From: Candidatus Kapaibacterium sp.
GTDB lineage: Bacteria > Bacteroidota > Ignavibacteria > Kapaibacteriales > UBA2268
Assembly: GCA_963665665.1 (NCBI GenBank)
Contig: OY762428.1
Coordinates: forward strand, 3,648,001-3,712,000
Direction: 5' to 3'
DNA length: 64,000 nt
In this document: positions 3,001 to 19,535 of the stretch, piece by piece
Layout of the letters: every line of letters begins with the position of its first letter
Position numbering within the stretch: the stretch's first letter is position 1
Translations under genes and position numbers: made by a program
The notes under the pieces: model-generated
What the model saw: the letters and a program-made list of their open reading frames with translations, nothing else
Told to the model about the DNA's origin: nothing
The model's database searches: none

Positions 3001-6000
3001 ATCGAGCTGGATGGTGGTAATCTTATTACACGTGGCCGCCATGCAACATCCTATGGCGCTATTGGCCGGCCGGGCGCAAATCCGGGACACATAGACGGTG
3101 AATTAAGAAAAATCATGGATACTGCTACGACCTCGGAAATATTTGAAGTTGGCTATGGCAGTCAGTACACTCCTGCCAGGCTCTCTTTTAACGGCAGTGG
3201 CGGATCTTCAGGTCTTGTTGGTGTTGCCAGTGATACTATAACTACAGCTACTTCACCAATCAGCTGGGATAATCTGAATCCTGATAATATTCTTCCTGCC
3301 GGCAGTGAGATGAGCCTTGACAAACATGTTGCAAGGCAATGGACTTTATCGAATCCGGGGGGAATATTCGCAATTGGTTCTAACAGAAATTATGATTTCA
3401 CAGGCTATTTTATTAATCCCGGCGACTTTCGTAATGGAGCTGATCCGGATTATTTTGAACTAAGGCTTTGGAACGGTTCTGTATGGACAGCTCCCGACAG
3501 GTTTGCTAACCCGCTTACCGGAACAAGGAACAGTGATAACTCTACATACAGAATGCTTGAAGAATTCGGTACTATCATTCTCGGAGAACCCGACAAATAC
3601 TCCTTCTACAGCATATATGATGCAAATTGGGGAGTAAATACCAGTTGGTCAACACAGTCATACGGTGGCCCTGCAAGTGATATTCCTCCCAATACTGATT
3701 GTAAGGTATATATTGGTGATTCTAAAGTAATTACTATGGAGGCCAATAAAACCAATAATGGTATAGTTACTATTGATACAAGTGGTACATTACTTTGTGA
3801 AACTTATGTGCTTAGCGGCGGCGTTGGAAGCGAATTTATTCTCGGCAGGGAAGGGGCACTTGGTATTGGAAGCGCCGATGGTATCAGGGCAAGCGGTGCT
3901 TTTGGTAATATACAGACTGATTCCAGAGATTTCAATGAAAATACTCACAACCGTGGCCACTTTATTTATACTTCCGGTTTGAACCAGACTCAGGCCGATG
4001 AGGCTCTTCCTATAACCATAGCTACTCTTCGGGTTAATAAAACTTCGAATACAGTAACCAATAACAGGTCTGCTATAATTATTACAGACAGTCTTCATCT
4101 TGAGAATGGTACTTATGAAGCCGGAGCCAATATAAGCCTGCTTGGTAATTTTTACAGGGAAGATGGTTCAACTTTCGATCCGTCAACAAATTCGTTTACC
4201 GTTGAAGGAACAAGCGGCCAATTTTTCACAAACAGTTCCACATCCCTGACGATAGATTTTTATAATCTTCAGATTGAAAAAGAAGCTGGCGAAGGCATCC
4301 TGACATTAAATGATAATACCCCGATAAAAATTGAAAATAATCTTTTATTTGCTCCTGCGAATGAATCAATAATTGACGGTCAGGGGCATTCCTGGAACTA
4401 TGTTGAATTGCCTAATGGCGCTACATTGACCAGGGCTGGTAGTGGCCATATATTTGGTGAATTAAGAAAATATATTCCTGCGGGAAATACCAGTGATATT
4501 GATTTTGAAGTTGGCGATACAACTTTCTTTACTCCGCTTCGATTTAATTTCGACGATACCGGAGGTACTGCCGGTCTGATCGGCGTTAATAGTATTCAGG
4601 GGGCGCATCCGAACATGACTGATACCGACTGCCCGATTGATCCTGCAAGATATATACCAAGATATTGGAGAACCACCCGGCCAGGCGGTTCCGGCTTTGC
4701 CGTTGGAACAAGATCGTACACTCTCAGGTCAACATTCATTGATCCGGACGATCTGGGTACAATTGACCATCCGACATGTACTGAAACCGGATACTGGCGT
4801 GGAACAACAGAAAGCTGGCAGGCTTTGAGGCCGAATACAACAAACGGCAATTTTGCTTATGCTTGTAGCGATACAAGGTTTATACTTGGTGATATCGATT
4901 ATGATGGCAGCATGACGACAAACCTGGCAAACGATATTCCTTCTGATTCTACGCTGGGTTCAACATATACATTTGCAGACGGTTCCCTTCTTTTAGCAGA
5001 TTACGTAGTCGGAAACCAGAATTCAGGCAGAACTACAATATTTTATAGCCGCCAGGACGGAGACTGGACAGATCCCAATACCTGGTCGGAAGATAGTTAT
5101 ATCGGCACTGCATCCAGCAGGTATCCCATAACACAGTATGATGTTGCTTATATCGGAAATAACCGCTACGTTGATCTTGATGCAAATCTTGGTACCAATT
5201 ATCTTTATTCAGGTGTATCTAATGATTATTTTGGTCCGGCTATAAATGTTGAAAATACCGGGGAACTTTATCTTCACAATCATGTAATACGCGGAGTAGG
5301 TTTTACAGCAAAGAAGGGATCGAAAGTTGTTATTGGCTCAAGGGACGGCATTACTCTGAGTAATACTCGCGGCAATATAATGTCTCTTACAAGGACTTTC
5401 GAAGACAGTATTAATGTTGTGTATACTGCCGAGGGTTATACCCCAAGGTGCAAGTATGGCGATCAAACTGGCAGAAACACTCAGTATTATGATGTCAGGG
5501 ACTGGTATGCCGATAGTAGATATACTGAAAGAGTTACAATGCAGGATGCCAGTTCGGATACAATAATGGATAACCAGAGCGGTTCTGATTTCAGGACGAG
5601 AGGGTATTTCTATTTTGCTGATATTACCGCAACAGTTACTTCGGGTAGCCAATATAGATTTTTCCTTGAGCCGGATGACAATGGATCAAGAAGGTGGAAA
5701 ATTTATGTTGACTGGAACTATGATGGTGATTTTTCTGATTCGAATGAAGAATGGTATGATTCCTACGGTAGCGGGACAAGAAATACGGGATTGCTTACTG
5801 TACCGGCAAGTACTAATCCGGGAGTAACCCGGATTAGAGTTATGAACCGTTATGGATCCAGTGACTATAACTGGTACAGCAGGAGTTTAACTGGAGAAGT
5901 TGAAGATTATACTCTTGTTATTATTAATAACACTCCTGCCATTACACAGGTAACAGGAGACAATTTACCTGATGACTTGTGGTCATTCGAAGCCCGTGCT

Positions 6001-9000
6001 GTAAGAACAGCCGGTGGTACAATCGAACTTGGAAATGATCTGCGTATAAGAGATTCTTTGTTATTAACCAGTGGCGTCTTTACAGTGAACGGCCATGATA
6101 TTTCACTTCAGGGTGATTTTATAAATGACTCAACAAATAATTTTATTCATGACAGCCAGACTATAACTTTCTATGGTTCTGATAATGACACAATCAGGGG
6201 AACAAATCCTACCGATTTCTATAATATAGTAATTGATAAAGACAGTGCTGATGTTGTTCTTACTCATTCAACACCTGATACTGATTTTTACACTACAATT
6301 GAAAATAATCTTACTTTTGATTCTGATACTGATTTTTATCTTTCAAATAGTTCTACTATTACTTTATTGTCATCATCGAATTTGAATGCCGGTTCCGGCA
6401 GTTTTGGCAGATACAGGAAATTTGAAGTAAGCGGCGATACTGATGCAGGAATCATTGAAAAACAATTTACAACTGCCGCAGGAGCCAAGGCTTTTGTATT
6501 CCCGGTAGGAATAGATACATTATATAATCCTGCCGACCTGACTTTAACGGGTTCTTATAGCGGAACTCCCACAATAAACCTTCAGCTCCATTACGGACTT
6601 CACCCGGCAAGGCTTGATGACAACATGCTTTTGAAATACTGGACCGTTGACCTTGAAGATATCAGCTCTATCACAGCTAATGATTTTAAGTTTTACTGGG
6701 AAGATTTGGATACTAATGGTGTTAAGGATGATTATATTCCTGCACTTCATTATTCAGGTGGATGGGAAATAAATCTTGGTATCGGCCCCAAAGCACTACC
6801 TTCGCCAATTGAAATAACAAACAGTCCGCTATTTGAAGGAGACTGGACTGCCGGCGATGCTAACGGTTTCTTTAATGGCCGACCCTTCTATTCCATAAAT
6901 ACAGGCGACTGGGATGTTCCTTCAAACTGGTCAAATATTAGTCATGTCGGCCCCCCTTCTTCATATTATCCCAATCAGCTCTATGATCATGATTCTGTTT
7001 ATGTTGACGGTTATACTATTACTTTCAATGTTGATAGTTCTCTTGTTGACCTTGTTGATGTAGGTGGTACATTTGGCACAAATGGTGAACTTACTTTCGG
7101 TAGCAGCCCAACGGAGAAAAAACTTACGTCAAGTTCTACATTTACTGTATATGAAGATGGCATATTGAATGGCACTACCGGTAGTAACAGAATAGATACT
7201 CTTGTGCTTCACGGAGATTTTTATAATTATGCGCAGTCTGCTTCCTCGGGTATAGTTGAACTTTATTCCGGCGCTAATGACTATACAGTATTGAAATTTG
7301 ATTCTCCTGATTCTGTGTCCGCTTCTGGCAATACATACATTGGTGGTGAAGGAGTATGGGGAGACATCGGTTCATATATTCTTGATAAGAATGGCGGGCT
7401 TGCCGATACTCTTATTGTCAATTCGGGTACGTTTGCCGATGCTACAGTTGCTTCGCCAGGTGACCTTGTTTACTACCCGGAACAGGGTGTTTTAAAGCTT
7501 AATGTAAATAATACATTGTCTGTAAGTAACGGAAATAACCCCGTACAAATGTCTCCTTTCACCGGTTTTGATGTTGCGGCAGGTGTAGTATCTTCATCAT
7601 CAACCCTGACAACCGATGTTAACACAACTATTCATGTTGACGGTGGTGATTTCCTTGTTGGTGATGCTGCCGGAGAATCCCTAATCTATAAAACCGGGAC
7701 ACATTTTGAACTTATCGACGGGACGCTTGATATTGCCGGCGCTTTCAAGAAATTTAATACCAATTCCCTTATAGATTTTTCCATGACATCAGTTGGTGCG
7801 GTCCGGGTTCTTAACCAGGGAGTATTGAGTTCTTCCGAGATTGGATTTGATATAACAAACGCATCATCATCATTTTCTATGGATGGCGGAAGGATAATTA
7901 TTGCCAATGGTACTGTTGGCGCTAATGCCGACTTTGAAGTTAATGCCCAGAACGGCACTGGTATGCTCGGTGGAGAAATTCAATCCGGCGACGGCACAAC
8001 TCCCGGCGCAGCGATAATAAAAATTGCAGGATCAATGCCCGTTTGGGACCTTCACGCCGTTGGAAATGCAAGTACAGATGTTGTAACCCAGATCACTGAA
8101 GAGACTTTTTATATTAATAATGACCTGATAATTGATAATATTAATACCTTTGAAACAAGAGGTAATACAATCGACCTGTCCGGAGACCTGTTAAATTCCG
8201 GTGTTTTCGATGCAATCAATTCTGCCGATGCAACAAGCCCCAGAATGCTTATACTTAGCGGTTCAAGCAATACTCAGACCCTATATAATGCTCAGGCAGG
8301 CGGCCTTGAGCTTTATAACCTCAGGGTAGATAAATTGGGGGGAGACGTTCTTCTTGGCCAGGCTCCCGGTGATAATTCTAATCTGCTAATAAGGAATATT
8401 CTTGAATTTACGAATGATAACTATTCTGTAATTGATTCAAGAACAAACGGGCTTTACGTGGAAATGGAACCCGATGCGGGTTCGGTTCCCCAGATAATCA
8501 GAAACGGACTGGGGCATATTTCCGGCAGGCTGTACAGGTATGTTGATACTGATGAACAAAGTGTTGCCTTTGCTGTTGGATCATCAACGGTAACCGAGTA
8601 CAGGCCTGTAGAATTTGAAACTGTTGGAAGCGGTGGAACAGCAGGTTTGGTGGGTGTTATAATGCATGATTTTGATCACCCGCGCCTTGGCGATGCTCTT
8701 GCCAAAACTGATAATAATATTCAGGTGTACTGGAATATTTCCGAAGGAACAGGCTTTGATCTTGATACAAGAACCTTTGATTTAAAAACTTATTTCCTGA
8801 ACCCGGAAGATATTCGCGGCGCTCAGTCTGATACACTGTTCTTCGGACATTTCCTTTACGAACCGCCATGCCCTGACCCTCCGGCAGTATGTCCGGGTGG
8901 CGGAACCTGGCATGAATTAATTTCAATTGATAAGGGGGCAAACTATGTGCGTTCCACTATCAATGACACATTCGGCGATGTAATGATAGCTGAAGCTGAC

Positions 9001-11070
9001 GGTGTAACATTTTACAGCATTAATGATGGTAACTGGAATAATGCAGCCAATTGGTCAACAGTCGGGTATGAAAGTGCTTCCAATCCTTACGGACGTTACC
9101 CCGGAGAGGCCGGTAATACAAGTGATAAGGCAAGGGTTGGTAACGATAAAAAGATTACAGTTCCTGTAGGTATACTTCCGAATGTAAGGACGTTGATTGT
9201 AGAAATGTATAACTCACAACCCGGAAAATTATATATTGAAGGTAATGTCGGGGCTGTAAGGGGAATATCCTTTGCTCTCAGGGACAGTTGTACTCTTGGC
9301 ATTATGCATCTGAACGGTATTGCTCAGAACGGGGTTACAGGTGGCGCCATTCTTATGGATACTCGTGAATATGGTGTTAGTAACTATGTATTTAATTCTA
9401 CTTTTGGTTCCCAGAACTCCGGTAAAGGCCTGCCCGATTCTGTTGCGGCAATAATTGTTGATAATCCGTCAGCGCCGACTAATAATGTTTTTGTTACAGC
9501 TTTCAATGCAGGTTATGACATTCGTGTAAGGGATTCGCTTTCCGTTTTGCAGGGAACTCTTAACTGTGGTAACAGGGACTTCCATCTTTATGGTGATTTC
9601 TCAATATTTGGAAACGGACTTTTTGAGCCTTTGGCTTCGAGTTTCGAGTTCAGCGGCCCCAACTCACATACAATCACTCTTGGGAATAACCAGGGCCTTT
9701 CTTTCTGGAATTGCAATGTCCGCTCGGATGCTGATGTTATTGTTGATCCTGTAACCGGATATGACACAACAACAGCACATATATATATGGAAAACAATCT
9801 GACATTCTCAGGTGATAATATATTTTACGTTCGCGATCAGTGGCGCAAGATTATTATGAGCAACACAGCAAATGTTGTTCAGTCAGTTGCCGATCAGGGC
9901 TATGTTGACGGTACTCTTCTGAAATATCTTGGCCCTAATGCTCTCACAGAATTTTTTGAGATAGGTAACGGAACGGCTTATACGCCTGTTCTTCTTACAC
10001 TCGATAATACCAGCGGAAATGGCACTGCCGGGCAGGTAGAAGCAATAAATATTGCACCCCTGCCTAATGACCCGTCCAATTACCCGGCTGTCGGGCACAG
10101 GATGGATACCGGGCGTTCCATTCCGCGCTACTGGCGCGTGATGCCGACTCCCGGTGGTTCATTTGCTATTGGTGGCCGTACAGCAAATGCACGCCTTCAC
10201 TTCCCCAATTCCGAACTTGGAATTATAAGTGTTCCGAATGCCGTTATCAGGCGGAGGTCGATTCCCACCGAGACGCCTGAATGGCATCAGCGCTCATATA
10301 CAACGCAGATAAACTGGGATGTTGTCAGCCCGACTTCCTGGGCGGAACTTCTTCCGGCAACACCGCCATGGGAAGGTATCGGCGAATTTTATATCGGCGA
10401 GAAATTTGACAGGACATTCTATAGTATAGCGGATGGTGTCTGGGCTGATAATAATACCTGGTCATTGGAATCTCATGACGGTATAGCGCCTCCTCCTGGT
10501 GTATATCCCAACCATGATGAAAACGAACAGGCTGATAACGTTGAAATAGGACTTACAAGCGCTTCCTATACTCACGTGGTTACTCTGGATGTTGACTCTC
10601 CTGATATTGATACGCTCAGGGTGCTTGGCAATTCTGAATTATATATGGATGCCAATACGATTAATTGTTACGATTGCCTGGCACTTAGCAAAGGACTTTT
10701 CCGATTCAGGGATAACGCCACGCTCAGCATTGGTGGTACGAACAATCCTAATGAACTTGTTTTGAAAAATTTCACTGCTTACGACTGGACGGATGCTGAG
10801 GGCAGCAACACAACAATAAAATTTACCGGTACAAATACAATTACTCAAAACCCTTTCGGTAATGCCACGGATATAGGGTATTTCGGCCATGTGGAAGTGG
10901 CCGAGCCGGGCGAGAAAGTTATTAACCAGGCTTTGCGTATTCAGGGGAACCTGCTGATAACAACCGGAGCAACTTTGAATGTTCAAAATATTGATGCATT
11001 GAAGGTAAATCGAAACGTTATCAACTCTGCCAGTTTGAATAATAACGGGGTGATCGAAATAGGCGAATAG
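1..11070 (+). CDS. Giant repetitive surface/adhesin-like beta-solenoid protein, 5' truncated by the window, with an inserted GEVED domain
   Basis: Frame is open from base 1 (NVDLWIDNPN precedes the GTG at 31). Six FYS-x2-(D/N/T)G-x-W-x5-WS-like motifs at about 1489, 3601, 5038, 6883, 9007 and 10414. Recurring GHIxGxL...F(E/P)VG...Y(T/S)P and RYW motifs. GEVED signature (YVDWNYDGDFSD...GEVEDY) at about 5700-5910. Ends in NNNGVIEIGE with no T9SS CTD. Confidence 0.8.
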   Translation, partial: NVDLWIDNPNVTVTGQSGDLEIQGGLRLSNGTVNVGLASETAGGLIYSNGTGTPSLTVENGYLNINSELAKSAVASTIDFNQSGGEINIGVRGYLNTTHGMFDISSVGSEFIWTGGIIELNRTNRSVTFTDGDYIVGASSGTVTGGTLRIDAQESGNRVYEINTTQPVNEIFMTGTNDPVAQIINTDLTILDDLTIDGSGAGRFDANDYNINIGGDWFNNASTSFTAFAAGSGTVTFDGSADQLIGGTRSTTYNHVTVNKSAGDVILSNTDRETFIEGTLKLDPGSSGLAVIDLNQRDLIMGESASYVSNSGTSVFNFDTTKYIKNSESGGNYNGRLIKQTTSGITARTEMMFPVGTDTVYSPAEIVYLAGQATFGADAYTACKVIPIEHPRVEEPDISLMRYWQMATNDITLDSDLDGDVDVIFHYVGTDVAGNEGEYRVLFFSPSYPDPLGFWTVDPGGIGNDIVDFNNRMFYSLAVKKVDGDWLCGEEDAAQATYFSRQNGDYNDPDTWSKITFGGAASSTAPNKASDRVLIADNDTVTVTANPAEVDVCAVMEDGTLKIAGDYVFTGDTLRVDANGSLIIGNSDGVYLSPTAQGCVQTDFRIFNSNVIYTFIDAPVTKSGTGNALPTQLRSIVVDKSSGDTLLLEKQFAITDSLVLIDGALDVGSYSINGNSAGRTFSMYDGELIIRNQYPTNYLDNTFTAGRITFDGTGNATIPSSGSTPGVDQYYDLKISGQRDSTVITFQSAGQINIINDFDISTIVFTGGLSERFQTDGSTVNFAKSGGVQDIQCRPASPPDSIVNLEYFNLLITGTGTKQLYTAAGTPTFVVRNDLTLSSSTFSSNGYNLEVNGDWVNTGSLFDPGTDGVIMRSPVFSLTNTISSRDTSENPFYNLLIGGEGIVEPNDDLYVMNDFAIEANSNFSLSTTTFTLEGDWTNYGGSFSSASFSTVHFNGSSTQNMTKSDAGNEEFWDVFISNPNHVDATGIGTSSDNGFVINNYIELDGGNLITRGRHATSYGAIGRPGANPGHIDGELRKIMDTATTSEIFEVGYGSQYTPARLSFNGSGGSSGLVGVASDTITTATSPISWDNLNPDNILPAGSEMSLDKHVARQWTLSNPGGIFAIGSNRNYDFTGYFINPGDFRNGADPDYFELRLWNGSVWTAPDRFANPLTGTRNSDNSTYRMLEEFGTIILGEPDKYSFYSIYDANWGVNTSWSTQSYGGPASDIPPNTDCKVYIGDSKVITMEANKTNNGIVTIDTSGTLLCETYVLSGGVGSEFILGREGALGIGSADGIRASGAFGNIQTDSRDFNENTHNRGHFIYTSGLNQTQADEALPITIATLRVNKTSNTVTNNRSAIIITDSLHLENGTYEAGANISLLGNFYREDGSTFDPSTNSFTVEGTSGQFFTNSSTSLTIDFYNLQIEKEAGEGILTLNDNTPIKIENNLLFAPANESIIDGQGHSWNYVELPNGATLTRAGSGHIFGELRKYIPAGNTSDIDFEVGDTTFFTPLRFNFDDTGGTAGLIGVNSIQGAHPNMTDTDCPIDPARYIPRYWRTTRPGGSGFAVGTRSYTLRSTFIDPDDLGTIDHPTCTETGYWRGTTESWQALRPNTTNGNFAYACSDTRFILGDIDYDGSMTTNLANDIPSDSTLGSTYTFADGSLLLADYVVGNQNSGRTTIFYSRQDGDWTDPNTWSEDSYIGTASSRYPITQYDVAYIGNNRYVDLDANLGTNYLYSGVSNDYFGPAINVENTGELYLHNHVIRGVGFTAKKGSKVVIGSRDGITLSNTRGNIMSLTRTFEDSINVVYTAEGYTPRCKYGDQTGRNTQYYDVRDWYADSRYTERVTMQDASSDTIMDNQSGSDFRTRGYFYFADITATVTSGSQYRFFLEPDDNGSRRWKIYVDWNYDGDFSDSNEEWYDSYGSGTRNTGLLTVPASTNPGVTRIRVMNRYGSSDYNWYSRSLTGEVEDYTLVIINNTPAITQVTGDNLPDDLWSFEARAVRTAGGTIELGNDLRIRDSLLLTSGVFTVNGHDISLQGDFINDSTNNFIHDSQTITFYGSDNDTIRGTNPTDFYNIVIDKDSADVVLTHSTPDTDFYTTIENNLTFDSDTDFYLSNSSTITLLSSSNLNAGSGSFGRYRKFEVSGDTDAGIIEKQFTTAAGAKAFVFPVGIDTLYNPADLTLTGSYSGTPTINLQLHYGLHPARLDDNMLLKYWTVDLEDISSITANDFKFYWEDLDTNGVKDDYIPALHYSGGWEINLGIGPKALPSPIEITNSPLFEGDWTAGDANGFFNGRPFYSINTGDWDVPSNWSNISHVGPPSSYYPNQLYDHDSVYVDGYTITFNVDSSLVDLVDVGGTFGTNGELTFGSSPTEKKLTSSSTFTVYEDGILNGTTGSNRIDTLVLHGDFYNYAQSASSGIVELYSGANDYTVLKFDSPDSVSASGNTYIGGEGVWGDIGSYILDKNGGLADTLIVNSGTFADATVASPGDLVYYPEQGVLKLNVNNTLSVSNGNNPVQMSPFTGFDVAAGVVSSSSTLTTDVNTTIHVDGGDFLVGDAAGESLIYKTGTHFELIDGTLDIAGAFKKFNTNSLIDFSMTSVGAVRVLNQGVLSSSEIGFDITNASSSFSMDGGRIIIANGTVGANADFEVNAQNGTGMLGGEIQSGDGTTPGAAIIKIAGSMPVWDLHAVGNASTDVVTQITEETFYINNDLIIDNINTFETRGNTIDLSGDLLNSGVFDAINSADATSPRMLILSGSSNTQTLYNAQAGGLELYNLRVDKLGGDVLLGQAPGDNSNLLIRNILEFTNDNYSVIDSRTNGLYVEMEPDAGSVPQIIRNGLGHISGRLYRYVDTDEQSVAFAVGSSTVTEYRPVEFETVGSGGTAGLVGVIMHDFDHPRLGDALAKTDNNIQVYWNISEGTGFDLDTRTFDLKTYFLNPEDIRGAQSDTLFFGHFLYEPPCPDPPAVCPGGGTWHELISIDKGANYVRSTINDTFGDVMIAEADGVTFYSINDGNWNNAANWSTVGYESASNPYGRYPGEAGNTSDKARVGNDKKITVPVGILPNVRTLIVEMYNSQPGKLYIEGNVGAVRGISFALRDSCTLGIMHLNGIAQNGVTGGAILMDTREYGVSNYVFNSTFGSQNSGKGLPDSVAAIIVDNPSAPTNNVFVTAFNAGYDIRVRDSLSVLQGTLNCGNRDFHLYGDFSIFGNGLFEPLASSFEFSGPNSHTITLGNNQGLSFWNCNVRSDADVIVDPVTGYDTTTAHIYMENNLTFSGDNIFYVRDQWRKIIMSNTANVVQSVADQGYVDGTLLKYLGPNALTEFFEIGNGTAYTPVLLTLDNTSGNGTAGQVEAINIAPLPNDPSNYPAVGHRMDTGRSIPRYWRVMPTPGGSFAIGGRTANARLHFPNSELGIISVPNAVIRRRSIPTETPEWHQRSYTTQINWDVVSPTSWAELLPATPPWEGIGEFYIGEKFDRTFYSIADGVWADNNTWSLESHDGIAPPPGVYPNHDENEQADNVEIGLTSASYTHVVTLDVDSPDIDTLRVLGNSELYMDANTINCYDCLALSKGLFRFRDNATLSIGGTNNPNELVLKNFTAYDWTDAEGSNTTIKFTGTNTITQNPFGNATDIGYFGHVEVAEPGEKVINQALRIQGNLLITTGATLNVQNIDALKVNRNVINSASLNNNGVIEIGE

Positions 11071-11340: not shown

Positions 11341-13938
11341 ATGAAAAAACGGTATTTTTACAATTCTATGTTGTCCGCACTGGCAATGCTCATATTAGTT
11401 GGCATGAGCAGCGAGGCTTTCGGGCAGACATTTATTAACCAGGGATCTGGTCAGGTTACTAACAGCGGATGTTTTAAGTTCAACACCGCCAGTGGTGAAC
11501 TGCAGAACAATGTCGGGACTGGCGATGATACCCAGACGATAATCAATAACAGCAGCGGTACAATTACTTTCATGGGGCAGGTGGTTACACCAGTGTTCAC
11601 TGGAACCAACCCAATTGGTACGGATAACAACCTTGATCGTATTCAAGGTTCTGTTCGCTATATAAATGATGATGCCGGTGGAAATGTTTATCTTTATGGT
11701 TATGGTGGCGCGGCCGATGCCACATACTACACAAATTTGACTCTTGATGGCCAATCAGCCAAATGGATTCCTGATAATGTGTACGTTGGTGGTGCTTATG
11801 AAAACAACTATCTTACTTCAGGAAGTCGTTCTTATACTGGAACTTTCTACTATGATGGTTCAATTGCTCAGACAATTGCCCCTGAAAATTCTAATTCAGG
11901 TAATTTAAACAGATATAATAATATGGATTTGTCCGGTGGCGGTACAAAAACTATTGCTTATGATGGAACAAATCTTCAGGGTGAAGTATATGTGATTAAT
12001 GAAGTTAATCAGGATGCCACATCCGCATTAAATGTATATGATGACTTCTATGTTGGTCATGCAAGTGGTACCGGCGGTACTTTTGCAGGAAATGTAACAG
12101 TTGGACAGGGTGGCCAGGCTGGTAATATTGACATGGGATTTGGTGACTATGGATTTACCGGTACTAATGTAACAATTGCAAATGGTACCTTTGAACTTGT
12201 TGGAACAGGTAGTTCCTCCTTCAGCGCTGCTGTAGCAATTAACAGCGGTTCATTTACTGTTACTAATACAACCTCCGGCGATCCTTATGCGCTATTTGCC
12301 AGCACAGTTAATGTAGCTGACGGTGGTACGCTTGGTACACAGGATGGAGCAAATGGTGATATCGCTATTGGCACAGCAGGAAGTTTAACTTTAGCTAATG
12401 CTGCCGGTGCTGTTTTAAATCTTGGTACAGGTACTGATATGATAGTTACAGGTAGCTTTACTAACGGTTTGGCTGCCCGTACCAATATGACTTTCGGTGA
12501 CGGATCCAACATGATCTATAATGCTGCCGGAGCTCAGACTGTTGTAAGTACTGCTTCTACAAATCCTTATTCAAACTTGTTTGTTGAAGGTGGGGGTACC
12601 AAAACTCTGGATGCAAATACTAATCCGATGGCTTATGTTGATGATAACTTTGGTATTGGTACATCAACTTATGCCGGTAATGTTGCATTTACTTCAAATC
12701 AGTCCGGTACTTTCACATTTGATGATCTTACTGACTTTACATATAATGCACTTGTAATGAATACGGGAACTGCAACATACCAGGGAACTTCTGAAGTTGA
12801 AGGTAACTTCCGCCGTGGTTCTATAACCGGTAAATTAATGGCTGATGACCAGTTATATACATATAACAATACTGAAACACAGTTGGCATTTGCAAATGCA
12901 CCGGCATTAAATGATTATATGCAGCTTCATGTTGAAGGTGGGCAGTATCCGTCAACAACATATATTGATGCTCCTGATTTAGTCAATGATCCTAACGAAG
13001 ACGATGTCAATAGGCTTTGGGTAACTCATACTGGTTCAAGTGATGGTTCAGTAGAAATTAATACACTCCGCCTTGCATTCCTTGCTTCCGAAGCAACAGA
13101 TGTTGACAGAACAGTAATGCGCGCCCTTGAGGGTACTAATGTTTCTGACGGTAATGCCAATCGTGAGGAAAAACTTAACATGCATTATGCTGCCGGCCAA
13201 ACTAATGGTACAAGTGGCTCTTGGGAATATTTTCAGTTGACAACAACCGGTGATGCTACGCCTTCTCCTTTAGCAATGGTGGGAACAGGTGCATCTGCTG
13301 CTGCCTTGCAGCCAAGATATAGCTTCCAGAATCTTGGTCAGGGTTCAGCTATAGCTCTTACAGATATGGAAAACTATCTAATCACAATTGCAAACGGTCG
13401 TTGGTCTTCAGACGATACATGGGATGAAGGTCGTCCACCGATGTCAACAGAACATGCAATCGTCCGTCACCTCGTATTTACAGGTATGCAGGGTGCTAAC
13501 ATTCTCGGTTCTACCGGTGTGACGACGTCTGAGGCTGAGGTCAATGGTGTTACCACTGTTGGTGATGTTGTTTACCTTGCCAAGAGCGTTGAGATCACGA
13601 ACACTTCTTATTCTGGTGCCAATCCTAATAACGTAGCACTCGTGTTCAACAATATTGATACAGATGCTGATGCTGGTGCGGTTAACCCGGCAAATGCAGT
13701 CTTCGCATTTGGTCAGGGTACACAGACGAATCCTGGTATGGTTAATAATAACGATGATCCCGGAACTCTTTGGGGTAATAATATTGCTAACTTAACATCT
13801 TATAATGGATTACAGGGTGTTTATACTATGGAATCAGAGTCTCCTGGTTCAAGGACAAATGCCGTCAGAGGTTACCAGATTACTAATAATGGTCGCTTCG
13901 TAATCGGTGCAAATTCTTGTGCTGAGGTTGGCGAGTAA
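11341..13938 (+). CDS. Secreted Gly/Thr/Asn-rich beta-solenoid protein, related to the giant protein's modules (candidate major filament subunit)
   Basis: GGAGG RBS. Sec signal ending AFG|Q. YxNLxxxGxxxK rungs and a NGRWSSDDTW motif. Ends in NSCAEVGE. Only two Cys (C44, C860). Confidence 0.75.
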   Translation: MKKRYFYNSMLSALAMLILVGMSSEAFGQTFINQGSGQVTNSGCFKFNTASGELQNNVGTGDDTQTIINNSSGTITFMGQVVTPVFTGTNPIGTDNNLDRIQGSVRYINDDAGGNVYLYGYGGAADATYYTNLTLDGQSAKWIPDNVYVGGAYENNYLTSGSRSYTGTFYYDGSIAQTIAPENSNSGNLNRYNNMDLSGGGTKTIAYDGTNLQGEVYVINEVNQDATSALNVYDDFYVGHASGTGGTFAGNVTVGQGGQAGNIDMGFGDYGFTGTNVTIANGTFELVGTGSSSFSAAVAINSGSFTVTNTTSGDPYALFASTVNVADGGTLGTQDGANGDIAIGTAGSLTLANAAGAVLNLGTGTDMIVTGSFTNGLAARTNMTFGDGSNMIYNAAGAQTVVSTASTNPYSNLFVEGGGTKTLDANTNPMAYVDDNFGIGTSTYAGNVAFTSNQSGTFTFDDLTDFTYNALVMNTGTATYQGTSEVEGNFRRGSITGKLMADDQLYTYNNTETQLAFANAPALNDYMQLHVEGGQYPSTTYIDAPDLVNDPNEDDVNRLWVTHTGSSDGSVEINTLRLAFLASEATDVDRTVMRALEGTNVSDGNANREEKLNMHYAAGQTNGTSGSWEYFQLTTTGDATPSPLAMVGTGASAAALQPRYSFQNLGQGSAIALTDMENYLITIANGRWSSDDTWDEGRPPMSTEHAIVRHLVFTGMQGANILGSTGVTTSEAEVNGVTTVGDVVYLAKSVEITNTSYSGANPNNVALVFNNIDTDADAGAVNPANAVFAFGQGTQTNPGMVNNNDDPGTLWGNNIANLTSYNGLQGVYTMESESPGSRTNAVRGYQITNNGRFVIGANSCAEVGE

Positions 13939-13954: not shown

Positions 13955-14023
13955 TCAGGAGGAGGTTCTCCTCCTCCTGATATTATTAAATTTTAAAAAA
14001 GGAAAACGAGTTGTTTTCCTTTT
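13955..14023 (+). terminator. Two hairpins after the 865-aa gene (terminator/attenuator or stabiliser)
   Basis: TCAGGAGGAGG-ttct-CCTCCTCCTGA (13955-13980) and AAAAGGAAAAC-gagtt-GTTTTCCTTTT (13997-14023). Confidence 0.65.
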
Positions 14024-14093: not shown

Positions 14094-16169
14094 ATGAAAT
14101 ACACGAGAAACATACTACTAATTAGTCTTATTCTAATCATTTCCGCATCTGCTGTTGATAGTCAGGTATTGCTTAGAAATGATAAGAAAAATGCTAAGAT
14201 AGTTAATAACGGTACTTTCCGTGTATTGAAAACAGGTTCGATCGTAGGTATGCCCGATACAATTGGTGGAAGGGTAGAATTCATTAGTGATGAAAGAACA
14301 ATGACTCAGGCAGTTCCGAATTCGACTTACAATCAGTTACTAATAACAGGTTCAACGAAAAAATATATTGATTCAGCATGGAATCATAAAACCTTCAACC
14401 CGCTTCGCACCAGGGATTCTCTGATAGTTGATGGCGAAACGGAATTTAATCTTGATTCTGTTGAAGTACATGCACAGGGGCCAATTGCAAATGAAGCCAG
14501 AATCAAGGGACGGAATGACCTTAGAGCAATAAATGAAGTTAATTCTCAGACGATTCAGGGAAAGGGGCTTATCAGAAGGCTTAATATCGATAATCCCCAG
14601 GGCGTTGATGTAGTTAAAGGTGGTGGCTTTAAAATAACCGGGAAATTAGAACTTACCCGCGGGGAGCTTCGCAATGACGCTGATAATAATTTCCATATCG
14701 AGGATTCGGTAAGGATTATCCGCCATACGGGCGCTTCGCTTGCTAATGATCCTGAATTTGACGGCAGGGATATTGCCGTGGAATATGTTGGTGGCGGTTC
14801 TCTTAGTACAGGTCCGGAATTGCCAAATGATTCAACGTTACTTGCCAGCCTGTATAACAAGACATCAGGCGGTGTTTACCTGACTAAATCCGTAACTGTT
14901 AATGATTCGCTGCTTCTTGTTTCCGACATTACTACAAGCCCGAACAGTACTACTTTTAATGATGATATTGTACTTACATATACAAATGACAAATCTCCGA
15001 TATTTACTAATCATGAAGCGGAGATCATCGGTGCTTTCCGAAGAACTAAGATCAGTTTCGACAGCACAAGGGTAATCTTCAATAATCCATATACCTGGGC
15101 TCTCTTTCTAAAGCCGGAGGATGCGAATGGTTCATCTGATATTACATTTCGCGTAAAACCAAAAACATTCCCTCCGTTTTATAAAGGCGAACTTAAGGTG
15201 CGCAGGAGTTTTGAAATCCGTGCCATGGATAGTAACTATGCCAGCATTGAAGAAGGCATAAACATGAAGGTTGGTTACGGCTGGCGTGTTTCAAAAGATA
15301 CGGCTAAGGACGAAAATCACGGGATGCCCTTGCCTGAATTACTATTCCAGCGATGGACAGGCTCGGATTGGTTTGATTACGATAATTCTAAAAAACCGAT
15401 TCTTGATACTCTTCCGGAATGGGCTTATGCCTCGGCCGATATTTCACAATATGGTGATTTTGCAATCGGTTTGCCGGGTGGAATTCAGTTGACACTTGAT
15501 TCCAGAGTTTTGCTTGAAGGGCCTTATCGATATGGATCAATGGCACAGGACCTGAGATTAAAAAATCTTGTTCCTAAAACTCCACCGGATATCTATCCAT
15601 ATAATCTGGATCCTAACCGAAATCTGATTTTCGTGAATCAAATTCCTGATTCCGTTGTTGATTGGATAGTTATGGAATTCAGGCCTTCCTTTACATCAAC
15701 CGACAGGTTCTATCGTACTGCTTTCCTTAGGTTTGACGGCCGGGTAGTTGACCTTGACGGTATATCCCCGGTACTGCTGTCTAAGGGCGGAATTGACTCG
15801 GGTGAGTACTATGTGGCTATTCACCACAGGAATCACCTTGCAGTAATAACTGAAAAGAAAGTTGGCATATATCCTGAAACTGTTCAGAGGGTACTTGATT
15901 TCACCAATCCAAATATACTTATGGGGCGTTTTAGTGCTCTTAAGCCGATCGATGTTACAGAAGAAGGCCGGGCGATATTCGGTATGATAGGCGGTGATAT
16001 AAATGGTGACGGTATTGTTGATGAAAATGATATGATAGGTGTTTGGAGCGATCGGGATTATGAAGGCCAATATCTTAATACCGATACCCGGATGAACGGT
16101 ATTATTCATACCCGGGATTTCAACGTGAGCTGGAACAACCGGGGCCGGGTCAGCAATCTTCCTAAATAA
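14094..16169 (+). CDS. Secreted protein: N-terminal beta-solenoid related to the 865-aa protein, C-terminal VLLEGPY/HRNH domain with a dockerin-like double Ca-loop
   Basis: Signal peptide ending VDS|Q. IVNNGTFRV...IGGRVEF...YNQLLITGSTKK matches the 865-aa N-terminus. C-terminus has RVLLEGPY...HHRNHL...GDINGDGIVDEND...DTRMNGIIHTRD. Confidence 0.7.
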   Translation: MKYTRNILLISLILIISASAVDSQVLLRNDKKNAKIVNNGTFRVLKTGSIVGMPDTIGGRVEFISDERTMTQAVPNSTYNQLLITGSTKKYIDSAWNHKTFNPLRTRDSLIVDGETEFNLDSVEVHAQGPIANEARIKGRNDLRAINEVNSQTIQGKGLIRRLNIDNPQGVDVVKGGGFKITGKLELTRGELRNDADNNFHIEDSVRIIRHTGASLANDPEFDGRDIAVEYVGGGSLSTGPELPNDSTLLASLYNKTSGGVYLTKSVTVNDSLLLVSDITTSPNSTTFNDDIVLTYTNDKSPIFTNHEAEIIGAFRRTKISFDSTRVIFNNPYTWALFLKPEDANGSSDITFRVKPKTFPPFYKGELKVRRSFEIRAMDSNYASIEEGINMKVGYGWRVSKDTAKDENHGMPLPELLFQRWTGSDWFDYDNSKKPILDTLPEWAYASADISQYGDFAIGLPGGIQLTLDSRVLLEGPYRYGSMAQDLRLKNLVPKTPPDIYPYNLDPNRNLIFVNQIPDSVVDWIVMEFRPSFTSTDRFYRTAFLRFDGRVVDLDGISPVLLSKGGIDSGEYYVAIHHRNHLAVITEKKVGIYPETVQRVLDFTNPNILMGRFSALKPIDVTEEGRAIFGMIGGDINGDGIVDENDMIGVWSDRDYEGQYLNTDTRMNGIIHTRDFNVSWNNRGRVSNLPK

Positions 16170-16213: not shown

Positions 16214-17548
16214 ATGAAAAAATATTCATACATACTGGTTTTTATTTTTCTCCTCTGTTCTTCAATAGTGTATTCACAGAACAGGGAGATTCTTGGTATT
16301 GTACAGATCGATGAAGTTAACCTGGTGCAGCCTGATACACTGGAATTTGATATTCTTCTGAAAAGAACATCAGACCGATGGGACAGATGGGCTAACGGCA
16401 CATTCCAATTGGAATTTACTGATACAAACTTCAAGCTGGGCCCTTCTGATATGCAGATTGAATACATTTTTAACAGTTCCGATCTGCCGACTCCGCCACT
16501 ATCAGGTGGTGTACTTCCTGTTGATAGTTATATTATAACACCAAGGATTTTAACTGACAGAATCAGTATTACAATAGCCGGACCGGAACTGTATCCTGAT
16601 GCATCTTATGTTCCCATGGATGATAATGGAATAAAGATCGGCACATTCAGAATTTTTTCCAATTTGGGCCAGAAATTATCTGAGTCACTTGGATGGAAAA
16701 TGCCATCGGATTATTACCAGGCATGTGCATATAAACTGAAAAATGATACTATCAGGCCGATAAATATTCCCTGGGCATTTGAAAATGATAATATCGAAAT
16801 GGATAACCTGCGCTCAACCGGCGTTACTTATGAAAGGATTGATACTATTCCACCGCAGATGGTTCTGAAGTATTTTCATGGTGAATATGTCGGCCTTCGA
16901 AAAGTAAGGTTGTGGTGGGAAACTGAAAGAGAGGCTTACAACAAGGGTTTTGTTCTTACCCGTGGAATTAAGCCGCCTTTCGGAGATGACGATGATACTC
17001 AGTTCAATACTCTGATAGCCAGGTTTGACGATGGAATACAGTGGCACAGGGATTCACTTACCGGGCTTGGAACCAAACGCTATGGCCGTGAATATATTTA
17101 TCCTTTCGATACCGTACCATACAGGGGTGAGGAATATTGCTACCTGCTTCAGTATATTGATTTCAATGATTCACTCAGGCATATTCCTTATACTGACGAG
17201 TATGGTGTATATCATGAAAAAGCTATCAGGTGCATACCTATTCCCAATGCTGTTATTTCTGCTGCAGAAGCCCAGCCAAATCCTTTCCGTGAACAAACCA
17301 CCGTGAAATATCTTTTGGATGATAATGTTTTACTGACTGTATCGGTATTCGACCTTCTTGGCAAGGAAGTCAAGAGGCTTATTGATAAGCAGGAGGTTGA
17401 ACTTGGTTGGCATGAGGTTATTTTTAATGCTCCAGTCGAGGAACTAGCCTCGCAGGGCCTTTACCAGATTGTTTTTATTGCTAATCCTATTGACGATCCG
17501 AACGTGGAAATTTCAAAAGCTATCGTTAAAGTGCAGTTGATAAGATAA
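16214..17548 (+). CDS. T9SS type A cargo protein with a cohesin-like N-terminal domain
   Basis: Signal peptide. TLEFDILLK...GTFQLEF beta-sandwich. LWWETERE...GFVL Ig-like domain. CTD QPNPFREQTTVKYLL...VFDLLGKEVKRL...KVQLIR. Confidence 0.7.
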   Translation: MKKYSYILVFIFLLCSSIVYSQNREILGIVQIDEVNLVQPDTLEFDILLKRTSDRWDRWANGTFQLEFTDTNFKLGPSDMQIEYIFNSSDLPTPPLSGGVLPVDSYIITPRILTDRISITIAGPELYPDASYVPMDDNGIKIGTFRIFSNLGQKLSESLGWKMPSDYYQACAYKLKNDTIRPINIPWAFENDNIEMDNLRSTGVTYERIDTIPPQMVLKYFHGEYVGLRKVRLWWETEREAYNKGFVLTRGIKPPFGDDDDTQFNTLIARFDDGIQWHRDSLTGLGTKRYGREYIYPFDTVPYRGEEYCYLLQYIDFNDSLRHIPYTDEYGVYHEKAIRCIPIPNAVISAAEAQPNPFREQTTVKYLLDDNVLLTVSVFDLLGKEVKRLIDKQEVELGWHEVIFNAPVEELASQGLYQIVFIANPIDDPNVEISKAIVKVQLIR

Positions 17549-17609: not shown

Positions 17610-19535
17610 ATGATCCTGAAACGACACTCCTTTTTCTTAATCATTGTATTATATTCTGCATCCTTTACAGGAGCTTTTAGCAAGTTACAGCTCGTATCGC
17701 CTGCAGTAACTGATACGGTTTTTATTGGCGAGAATATTCTGATACAGTGGGAAGGAGATGAAGGCAGGCCGGTTAACCTGGATTATTCAACTGACATGGG
17801 CGCCGAATGGATTAATATTATTCAGGGATATCAGGGTAGTTCTTATTCCTGGGAAGCTCCATTTCTGGAATCAGTTGACATACGCTTCAGGATTACACTT
17901 GATGAACTGATTAAACCATATATTATCTGGGATACTACAGGCTGCCATAACGCAGAAGTAAGAAGCGCCAGAATAAGCGATGACGATGCATTAGTTGTTA
18001 CATCATCCGATGATGATATAATCAAAATATGGGATATTAACTCCAGAACATTGATAGATTCATATACTCTGAGTATGTCGTTAAATCTTTATAATGCACG
18101 TTTCCACCATGGAACAGATTCAATAATTGCTGCAACAAGCAGCGGATTATTTATTTGGGACAGGAATGCCGGCAGCTTTGAATTATTATCCGGAAGTTCA
18201 TTTACTGACCACGTAAGATCCTGTGCGAGCAGTATATATCAGGATATTGCATTTGGCGCAAGCTATGACGGCAGCGTTAAAGGATTTTCTACTTTTGATA
18301 AATCGGAAATCTATAATTTTCCCGAGCCTTCGAATACCGAGCAATATTGTGTGAATTATTCTCCTGACGGTAGTGCGGTAATTCATTCCGGTTACAATGG
18401 CCTGGTATATTTCCGGTATCTGGATTCACCCGATCCTCCTGTTGTTTTAACGGGGCACGGGGTAAACGGCCAGCGGCTGTTGGTTTGGACGGCCTGTGTA
18501 TCACCGGACAACAGCCTTGCAGCTTCAGGTGGGGTAGATAAAACAGTCAGATTATGGGACCTGCAAACAGGCAATGAGATTATTACCCTTGGAAATCACA
18601 GTGGGCAACTCCGCTCTGTTATGTTTCACCCGAATTCACAATATTTATTATCAGCCGGGCTTGGCGACACACTCAGGCAGTGGAGAATGAGCGATTACTC
18701 GGAATTTACCGATGTGGTTATCGATCACAAGGGACAAATACTGGATGCAGCATATACTCTTACCGGCGATTCGATTATCACAGCCGGAAGGGACAATGGT
18801 TTTAAAATCTGGAAAAACTTTGAATTTACAAATGATGCCGACTCCAGTGAACACCAGTTGAGGTACAGGCTCAGGTTTAAAATACCTCACATATATTCTT
18901 CAGTTCTTTCCCTGGAAGAAATACCAATGATTTGCGAAAGAAAAAAGGGCTATCCGGAGATATTATCGCGTCTTCCTGAGATTGATTTCAGAATACTTAT
19001 ACCCAACAGACTTCTGTTTGTGGATATACCAGGAAAGGTTAAATTTTCTCAGTCCAGGAATGATACCCTGATTGATAAACGGGCAGTAGTGCTAAACGAT
19101 ACGGTCTATACATTTGAAGGGCTGGTATTGCAGGGAGACAGAACATCCGAAGAAATAATAATTGAAAGTATTAATATTCCGAACGACAGCATATTTTATA
19201 TTGAAACTGAAGACGGATCCATAAATATAAGAGAAGAGTGTATAGGAGAATCGGGCAGAGCTGTTTCCTTCATGTCCTATGTCCCCGGTATTAATATACG
19301 TCCCAATCCTGTTGGTAATATTCTGCAGCTTGATTTCAAAACTGTTGCCGACGGTATGGTTACAATTGAGTTGTATGATGAAAGAGGTGCAGCAGTTCTT
19401 GAATTATTCAATAGAAACCTAAAGGGTGGAATTTATAGTATTACACGTGAATTGGACTGTTTGATTTCAGGAGTGTATAATGTCCGTATGGTATGCCCTT
19501 CCGGAATATTTAATCAAAAAATGGTAAAATATTAG
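17610..19535 (+). CDS. WD40-repeat T9SS cargo protein
   Basis: Repeats such as SGGVDKTVRLWD, SSDDDIIKIWD and AGRDNGFKIWK. CTD IRPNPV...ELYDERG...SGVYNVRM...KMVKY. Confidence 0.85.
   Translation: MILKRHSFFLIIVLYSASFTGAFSKLQLVSPAVTDTVFIGENILIQWEGDEGRPVNLDYSTDMGAEWINIIQGYQGSSYSWEAPFLESVDIRFRITLDELIKPYIIWDTTGCHNAEVRSARISDDDALVVTSSDDDIIKIWDINSRTLIDSYTLSMSLNLYNARFHHGTDSIIAATSSGLFIWDRNAGSFELLSGSSFTDHVRSCASSIYQDIAFGASYDGSVKGFSTFDKSEIYNFPEPSNTEQYCVNYSPDGSAVIHSGYNGLVYFRYLDSPDPPVVLTGHGVNGQRLLVWTACVSPDNSLAASGGVDKTVRLWDLQTGNEIITLGNHSGQLRSVMFHPNSQYLLSAGLGDTLRQWRMSDYSEFTDVVIDHKGQILDAAYTLTGDSIITAGRDNGFKIWKNFEFTNDADSSEHQLRYRLRFKIPHIYSSVLSLEEIPMICERKKGYPEILSRLPEIDFRILIPNRLLFVDIPGKVKFSQSRNDTLIDKRAVVLNDTVYTFEGLVLQGDRTSEEIIIESINIPNDSIFYIETEDGSINIREECIGESGRAVSFMSYVPGINIRPNPVGNILQLDFKTVADGMVTIELYDERGAAVLELFNRNLKGGIYSITRELDCLISGVYNVRMVCPSGIFNQKMVKY

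Follow-up and report, generated by a model that had tools for sequence, protein, structure and literature searches.

A proposed modular β-helix fibre in a Candidatus Kapaibacterium genome, with a cysteine at each of the two matching ends of its putative shaft subunit

Curli are the closest working analogue of the system described here. In the published study of this system (PMC10192328), solenoids of CsgA join head to tail by contact of the first with the last repeat, an interface that was proven by engineering one cysteine into each of these repeats and detecting the disulfide. That engineered arrangement is the layout found naturally in the 865-residue protein M, which is encoded in a 64,000-nucleotide stretch of Candidatus Kapaibacterium sp. 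(contig OY762428.1 of assembly GCA_963665665.1, positions 3,648,001 to 3,712,000 of the forward strand; hereafter the window) between a giant protein, G, upstream and a 691-residue protein, D, downstream. M is proposed to be the repeating shaft of a β-helix fibre, G-(M)n-D, stapled by disulfides between Cys860 of one copy and Cys44 of the next, a reading to which we give a probability of roughly 60%. Head-to-tail stacking of the end rungs of G, M and D, taken by itself, is considered probable with good confidence.

M is encoded on the forward strand (positions 11341–13938) and is predicted to be a secreted β-solenoid. Its signal peptide (residues 1–28, positions 11341–11424, with a helix at residues 4–22) is followed by a Gly/Thr/Asn-rich sequence that is rich in strands, and the mature protein begins at Gln29, a residue that is near-invariant across the family. 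The N-terminal rung (residues 29–49, positions 11425–11487), the predicted docking surface, contains Cys44 (TGT, codon 11470–11472, in the context ...VTNSGCFKFNT...) and Lys46, and the C-terminal rung (residues 845–865, positions 13873–13935), the predicted acceptor surface, contains Cys860 (TGT, codon 13918–13920, in the context ...IGANSCAEVGE) and Glu862. In family logos both ends of the M proteins display the same hexad repeat (G-x-I-x-N-x-G-T-I-R/K-F at the N-terminus and N-x-G-x-I-x-N-x-G-x-I-E-V-G-Q/E/D at the C-terminus), with Cys44 and Cys860 each at position +1 past the second glycine or serine of the motif. A sequence-only reading of this locus had described these as the only two cysteines of M, one per end and in matching rung register, with threonine in D and valine in G at the equivalent place; a script count of the translation and the family logos bear this out.

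The flanking proteins each carry one of the two motifs. G (positions 1–11070, forward strand) starts 834 nucleotides before the window, and its full open reading frame (ORF) encodes 3966 residues including a signal peptide; none of its 18 cysteines is terminal, and its C-terminal rung (positions 11005–11067, reading NNNGVIEIGE and ending ...NSASLNNNGVIEIGE) has Val at the place of Cys860 and Glu at +3. D (positions 14094–16169, forward strand), the proposed terminal or anchor subunit, is devoid of cysteines and of a C-terminal rung motif, but has the N-terminal one (IVNNGTFRV, positions 14199–14225, within a mature start that reads KIVNNGTFRV), with Thr at the place of Cys44 and Arg at +3. Position +3, occupied by Lys46 and Glu862 in M of the window, pairs an N-terminal Lys/Arg with a C-terminal Asp/Glu in 64 of 117 M-protein rows, and it holds Glu/Asp in 23 of 32 C-termini of G and Lys/Arg in 30 of 57 N-termini of D. 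In this genome both end motifs are confined to G, M and D and a genome search found M to be single-copy, so that Cys44 of another M is the only motif partner available to Cys860.

In the proposed assembly, G, M and D would jointly build a single polar β-helical surface fibre by joining head to tail. The first ~21 mature residues of each subunit would stack on the final ~21 residues of the subunit before it, with the strands parallel and in register. G would offer an acceptor end only and D a donor end only; having both ends, M could repeat. Cys860 of one M would then lie directly over Cys44 of the next, where a disulfide would make the shaft covalent, and the G–M and M–D junctions, with their Val and Thr, would be held non-covalently by continuation of the β-sheet and by the Lys/Arg–Glu pair. 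Beyond the predicted docking, we infer that the disulfide forms, that it does so by oxidation outside the cell and that n exceeds one.

The distribution of cysteines in the family provides the first line of support. In an alignment of 120 of 147 family proteins (the 27 left out being fragments, fusions and D-like hybrids), the mature proteins contain no cysteine in 40 rows, one in six, two in 22, three in three, four in 43, five in four, six in one and 11 in one. Even counts (66 rows) thus exceed odd counts (14 rows), which indicates that the cysteines of the family come as pairs. In nine of the 22 two-cysteine proteins the cysteines lie at opposite ends, one among the first 40 mature residues and its counterpart among the last 32, an arrangement expected in about 0.1 of 22 under random placement according to our own arithmetic. 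Two recurring classes are internal (M numbering): 387–434, present in many proteins, and 42–152, in one subfamily. The others join the two terminal regions, namely 44–860 (M itself, P0001, and P0004), 48/49–864 (six representatives), 42–858 (three proteins), 30–846 and 34–850 (two proteins each), 34 to 40 with 805 to 810 (seven proteins), 152–832 (four proteins), 83–848 (two proteins) and 110–865 or beyond (three proteins). P0004, which is 48% identical to M, is the only other family protein with the exact 44/860 pair.

The terminal cysteines were also followed on a FastTree phylogeny of the 120 rows, calculated from the internal part of the alignment alone (M residues 60–795), which requires ten changes for the end-strand pair, 18 for any inter-terminal pair and 21 under multistate coding. 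N-terminal and C-region cysteines occur together in 25 rows, the former alone in 24, the latter alone in 12 and neither in 59; among 20 independent contrasts, 11.4 changed in the same direction, 0.6 in opposite directions and 8.0 were unchanged (median p = 0.0018). When N-terminal cysteines with a partner at residue 152 are set aside, the counts become 25, 3, 12 and 80, and of 16 contrasts 12.4 changed in the same direction and none in the opposite one (p = 0.00024). These analyses supersede an initial Fisher test on fixed windows (cysteines at both ends in 15 rows, at the N-terminus only in 36, at the C-terminus only in seven and at neither in 62; odds ratio 3.7, p = 0.009), because many of the rows with only an N-terminal cysteine have an internal partner at ~152. 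The two terminal cysteines are therefore gained and lost jointly on the tree, not independently, as had been anticipated from the sequence of M.

The positions at which such pairs arise are themselves informative. For 18 non-redundant M proteins with cysteines at both ends (19 rows minus the incomplete P0107), the offsets of the two cysteines from the two motif glycines fall into seven registers: (−15, −12), (−12, −7), (−3, −1), (−1, −1), (+1, +1), (+5, +5) and (+6, +5). N-terminal and C-terminal cysteines have been gained together many times, at seven matching registers. The relation between the offsets is monotonic with a slope of one, as expected if the two rungs stack in parallel and in register. 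The family may therefore be regarded as a natural cysteine scan, yielding a residue-level contact map of the junction without an experiment.

A complex model of mature M (residues 29–865) with the N-terminal 162 residues of a second copy (residues 29–190) is consistent with this arrangement. The model reached an interface score (ipSAE) of 0.73 (0.73, 0.76 and 0.71 in separate runs), the best of three controls scoring 0.00; of 80 solved complexes 58 attain the mark used for this score, as do two of 110 mismatched pairs, counts that are only a rough guide here as a custom alignment was used. At least 93% of the contacts agree between runs, and the partner has a predicted local distance difference test score (pLDDT) of 84–86. 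The predicted interface comprises residues 798, 802, 805, 807, 810, 831, 843 and 845–865 of the first chain and residues 29–49, 52 and 72–73 of the second, and the residue pairs with the lowest predicted error include 849:33, 854:40, 848:32, 856:42, 847:31 and 863:47. The N-terminus of the second copy is thereby predicted to dock on the C-terminus of the first, and the offset of 816 along the last strand would place Cys860 over Cys44 and Glu862 over Lys46. The C-terminal residues of the other natural cysteine classes (805–810, 832 and 846–865) coincide with the predicted interface. Since the N-terminus of the first chain lies outside this interface, the model does not fold the two ends of M together. 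The disulfide between shaft units that had been put forward from the sequence is hence supported, by co-variation and by the docking model, as far as computation allows.

Natural rearrangements of the locus point to contacts between different chains. Six M–D fusions (P0074, P0089, P0094, P0100, P0109 and P0110; 1451–1581 residues) link the last rung of M to the first rung of D by a connection of only some six residues that includes no signal peptide, and P0110 retains a cysteine at the position of Cys860. In the loci L023/L046, L048 and L037/L072 the C-terminus of G has a cysteine in the register of the C-terminus of M, and the N-terminus of M has the matching cysteine. The first mature cysteine of the complete giants is residue 344 in L023/L046, residue 38 in L048 and residue 144 in L037/L072; from the positions 344 and 144, it follows that two of the three lineages have no N-terminal partner inside G. 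The idea that the junctions at the two extremities of the fibre stay non-covalent accordingly fits the present locus, where G has Val and D has Thr, and does not extend to these other lineages, in which the G–M junction carries a cysteine pair. In one further lineage (L026, L033 and L076) the only cysteine of D lies in the N-terminal rung, at the place of the N-terminal cysteine of M, with a partner cysteine in M about 50 residues from its end. The asymmetry of the ends, with a donor rung and no acceptor rung in D and an acceptor rung in G, points in the same direction. As a separate observation, Cys38 of the giant of the L048 locus (L093) lies in an N-terminal strand region, and the N-terminus of this giant may itself dock on a C-terminal rung. 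The lone cysteine that many D proteins have was also considered as partner of the lone C-terminal cysteine of M in loci of the L047 type, and was rejected because it lies at ~540–596, in the C-terminal part of D and away from the junction.

Several observations weigh against a disulfide-stapled shaft and have to be set against the alternatives. The pair 860:44 is absent from the 25 listed contacts of the complex model and was extrapolated from 863:47 and the interface sets; with the custom alignment used, intrachain co-evolution could pass for an interchain signal; and the controls were unrelated proteins, not the ends of other β-solenoids. Co-variation and matched registers, for their part, show that an N-terminus touches a C-terminus and not whose termini these are. 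The same data would hence be compatible with a disulfide within one chain, in which the end rungs of M itself stack and are closed into a loop by Cys44–Cys860, the three proteins being separate or associated in some other way. The non-solenoid middle domain of M (residues 485–650) could allow the chain to fold back, the giant of L048, having both an N-terminal and a C-terminal cysteine, suits such a pair too, and D, which has no C-terminal rung, almost never has an N-terminal cysteine. However, the N-terminus of the second copy takes the C-terminal face in the model even though the N-terminus of M itself is present, and in the fusions the first rung of D comes straight after the last rung of M, so that this face cannot hold the N-terminus of M. 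Neither the giants with a C-terminal and no N-terminal cysteine (two of three lineages) nor the lone N-terminal cysteine of D in L026, L033 and L076 would find an explanation within a single chain, and D has the N-terminal motif without the C-terminal one. Closure within the monomer is for these reasons judged unlikely.

The remaining doubts concern oxidation. The genome, which is 99.48% complete, contains no match to DSBA, Thioredoxin_4, DsbB or VKOR, and in-register cysteines on neighbouring parallel strands form strained disulfides. Lone terminal cysteines exist (12 rows on the C-terminal side only and three at the N-terminus only, when N-terminal cysteines partnered with residue 152 are excluded), and M of the L047 type has a single cysteine. 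These facts would suit stacking without oxidation, the two cysteines of a junction either bridging a metal or responding to redox state, or else a single M in G-M-D with free thiols. On the other hand, the excess of even cysteine counts and the recurring internal 387–434 pair argue that cysteines of the family are disulfide partners, and a 1:1:1 complex offers no reason why two or more lineages that lack a cysteine partner in G or D (the present one and L020/L022) should have gained both cysteines jointly, because in the present locus neither would face another. Unoxidized cysteines are thus held to be about as improbable as closure within the chain. For a stapled shaft, the lack of DsbA, DsbB and VKOR means that oxidation would be spontaneous or catalysed by some other enzyme; a haem–copper oxidase is present in the genome, and extracellular oxidation in air is therefore plausible. 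The excess of even counts (66 versus 14) in a secreted family stands in contrast to a genome without DSBA, Thioredoxin_4, DsbB or VKOR matches. That the pair is a functionless by-product of chance in a cysteine-poor protein is very improbable: the exact pair is indeed shared with one close relative only (P0004) and is a single evolutionary event in its clade, but the layout recurs in nine of the 22 two-cysteine members, in seven matched registers and with significant contrasts.

The nucleotide sequence offers a further hint regarding stoichiometry. A perfect, GC-rich hairpin of 11 base pairs (positions 13955–13980, forward strand) lies 17 nucleotides past the stop codon of M. In a survey of 38 loci, the window included, with an M–D spacer of at least 30 nucleotides, a hairpin directly 3′ of M scored beyond all 30 shuffles in 37, and it outscored the best hairpin of the usually longer G–M spacer in all 24 loci compared. 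It is kept as a structure, and its sequence differs between loci; in 23 more loci the M and D genes overlap or lie very close together. A stem-loop follows the gene of the major subunit in pilus operons such as pap and fim. By analogy, the hairpin is a hint that M may be made in excess, possibly acting as a terminator or an mRNA stabilizer that sets the M:D ratio, and M looks like the major subunit.

The predicted fold of M (mean pLDDT 84.8, predicted template modelling score (pTM) 0.63) consists of short strands between residues 30 and 450, a middle domain (residues 485–650) in which the strands are longer and a C-terminal strand region that begins past an invariant G-R-W-S...W...P motif. Fold matches in the PDB are weak, none reaching E ≤ 0.001, and comprise right-handed β-helix adhesins and an antifreeze solenoid. 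The model of D is more confident overall (pLDDT 90.0, pTM 0.68), with a less certain start (means of 46 for residues 21–30 and 74 for residues 31–40), and its C-terminal part (approximately positions 15651–16166, forward strand) is a β-module with two helices at the very end, the sequence finishing in the family motif ...TRDFNVSWNNRG.... At the level of fold, the D model is matched best by type II X-module–dockerins (4u3s_B, 4wi0_B, 2b59_B and 5g5d_B), with probabilities of 0.99–1.00, TMt of 0.54–0.63 and E-values between 2e-3 and 5e-2, none at or below 0.001. Owing to this X-module–dockerin-like end, the model suggests that D is more likely to be the cell-side anchor than a 'head'; the labels 'head' for D and 'tail' for G in the sequence-only reading were arbitrary and are not retained, D being more likely the base of the fibre. 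As an additional observation, D proteins of the loci L006, L025, L028, L031, L037, L042, L047, L055, L061, L068, L072, L074, L077 and L078 have a cysteine in a conserved ...YRT-C-FLK.DG... segment (around residues 530–596), which is the sole cysteine in most of them; D of the window has Ala at this place.

The family to which these proteins belong has so far escaped annotation. Neither M nor D is matched in Pfam or NCBIfam, and G is not matched in NCBIfam; a GEVED domain (PF20009, E = 2.3e-13; residues 1899–1972 of the part of G inside the window, positions 5695–5916, forward strand) is the only domain that Pfam matches in G, in which, by eye, a '...S...G.W.....W...' motif also recurs at intervals. 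The A2 (M-family) and A4 (D-family) profiles gave no sequence match among PDB chains, a protein atlas returned only 'hypothetical protein' clusters, and a literature search judged at the level of abstracts found no publication on the G/M/D family. An exhaustive search with M retrieved 146 cluster representatives (50% identity, query included) at E ≤ 0.001, 94 of them at E ≤ 1e-10 and 22 at E ≤ 1e-30; a word-index search returned five relatives besides the query, and the 31 stretches matched by P0001 in metagenomes included no relative. A scan of genomes for family loci confirmed 125 of 153 candidate stretches, of which 80 loci were kept (L001–L080), and record titles assign these mostly to metagenome-assembled genomes of Kapaibacteria, Ignavibacteria, Chlorobiota or Bacteroidota. 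Some titles (L001, L006, L008, L013, L014, L060 and others) name Hyphomicrobiales, Bradyrhizobiaceae or Desulfobulbaceae, and these are probably mislabelled bins.

The conserved gene order comprises a giant of more than 3000 residues, M, D, a protein of ~430 residues, a WD40 protein of ~640 residues and an OmpA-like barrel; the giants finish in N-x-G-x-I-E-I-G-x and the D proteins end in ...TRDFNVSWNNRG.... In a Melioribacter-like subgroup there is no giant and the M and D genes overlap (gap −3). In this subgroup, several proteins of 400–880 residues ending in ...W(D/N)G(T/S).W... are encoded upstream (L009, L010, L013, L016, L018, L024, L027 and similar loci), and these may be another kind of tip. 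In the window, the conserved partners are a protein of 444 residues (~430–450 in the family; positions 16214–17548, forward strand), with a weak, sub-threshold match to a type IX secretion system (T9SS) sorting domain, and a WD40 β-propeller of 641 residues (positions 17610–19535, forward strand), with a weak match to a T9SS C-terminal sorting domain. The operon of the window ends after the latter gene; in place of the OmpA-like and CHASE-PAS-HisKA genes that come next in L001, the window has two minus-strand ORFs of 589 and 1041 residues between positions 19843 and 24761, where the G+C content is 0.47–0.48 compared with ~0.41. Elsewhere in the genome (G000:C1:2448505-2457612, forward strand, outside the window), an ORF of 3036 residues encodes a large β-helix-like protein with a weak match to the M profile (E = 3e-4).

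Taken together, there is about an even chance that these genes encode an undescribed modular fibre of Kapaibacteria, Ignavibacteria and Chlorobiota: a giant β-helix adhesin split into three genes with complementary end rungs, with a giant tip that has the acceptor end alone, a repeatable shaft that has both ends and a dockerin-like base that has the donor end alone. The length of such a fibre would be set by the number of shaft units inserted, and its junctions would have been stapled by disulfides repeatedly and at differing registers in different lineages. If true, this would represent a third principle of bacterial fibre assembly beside the strand exchange of pili and the amyloid stacking of small repeats in curli, namely the end-to-end docking of very large folded β-helix proteins encoded by separate genes, with an optional covalent lock, in a family that has no relative in Pfam (apart from GEVED in G), NCBIfam or the PDB and yet is widespread in an entire branch of the FCB (Fibrobacterota–Chlorobiota–Bacteroidota) group. 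The donor and acceptor rungs, the charge pair and the optional disulfide could be borrowed for protein fibres of programmable length.

Comparison with described systems delimits what this assembly is. Chaperone–usher and type V pili resemble it in that neighbouring subunits are linked by a terminal strand, with which one completes or extends the other, and in that the operon encodes repeating and terminal subunits. M, however, is a β-solenoid and not an immunoglobulin-like pilin, its rungs would stack instead of being inserted as strands, and no usher, chaperone or FimA-type family was found among the Pfam and NCBIfam matches of the operon proteins; in contrast to the type V (FimA/Mfa) pilins, M has no lipobox cysteine, its signal peptide being followed by Gln29. 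Autotransporter and TpsA adhesins such as EspC, Ag43, pertactin and Hap are elongated, right-handed surface β-helices and include the best fold matches of M, which are all weak (EspC, 9mne_B, E = 8.9e-3, TMq = 0.17; also Ag43, pertactin and MpAFP). Unlike these, M has no translocator barrel or two-partner secretion domain in Pfam or NCBIfam, and each of those adhesins is one chain, not an end-to-end assembly of several gene products. The X-module–dockerins of cellulosomal scaffoldins share with the C-terminal part of D the fold matches and, by eye, two D-x-N-x-D-G-like loops, but D has no Pfam dockerin or PDB sequence match, the fold matches have E-values of 2e-3 or weaker and no cohesin-like partner of D was found among its neighbours. 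A T9SS C-terminal sorting domain (Por_Secre_tail) was not found in M, D or G with Pfam or NCBIfam, and the matches of the 444- and 641-residue proteins stay below threshold, at 15.4 and 22.2 bits against a cut-off of 27 in Pfam and at 19.9 bits against a cut-off of 23 in NCBIfam. M therefore belongs neither to the curli family nor to the chaperone–usher or type V pilins, and it counts neither among the autotransporters nor among the cargo proteins of the T9SS.

It is nevertheless curli, with CsgA as major subunit and CsgB as nucleator and anchor, that the M system most resembles. The differences are considerable: a Pfam scan found no Curlin repeat (Curlin_rpt) in M, D or G, the subunits have 700–4000 residues compared with ~130, the fold of M is an adhesin-type β-helix with extra domains, the subunits fall into three classes (donor-only, acceptor-only and dual-ended), and the hosts are Kapaibacteria, Ignavibacteria and Chlorobiota. 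Genes resembling csgEFG were not recognized in the operon, in which an OmpA-like barrel, the WD40 protein and the ~430-residue protein were seen, no search having been aimed specifically at CsgG, CsgE or CsgF. Both systems nonetheless consist of secreted, open-ended β-solenoids that form a polar fibre when the sheet of one subunit continues, head to tail, in the next, as predicted here, with a minor subunit at the cell end; for M, polymerization through open end rungs is predicted by the docking score (ipSAE 0.73), the matched registers and the fusions. The M system is thus a new variant of end-to-end β-solenoid fibre assembly, represented by an unannotated and widespread family.

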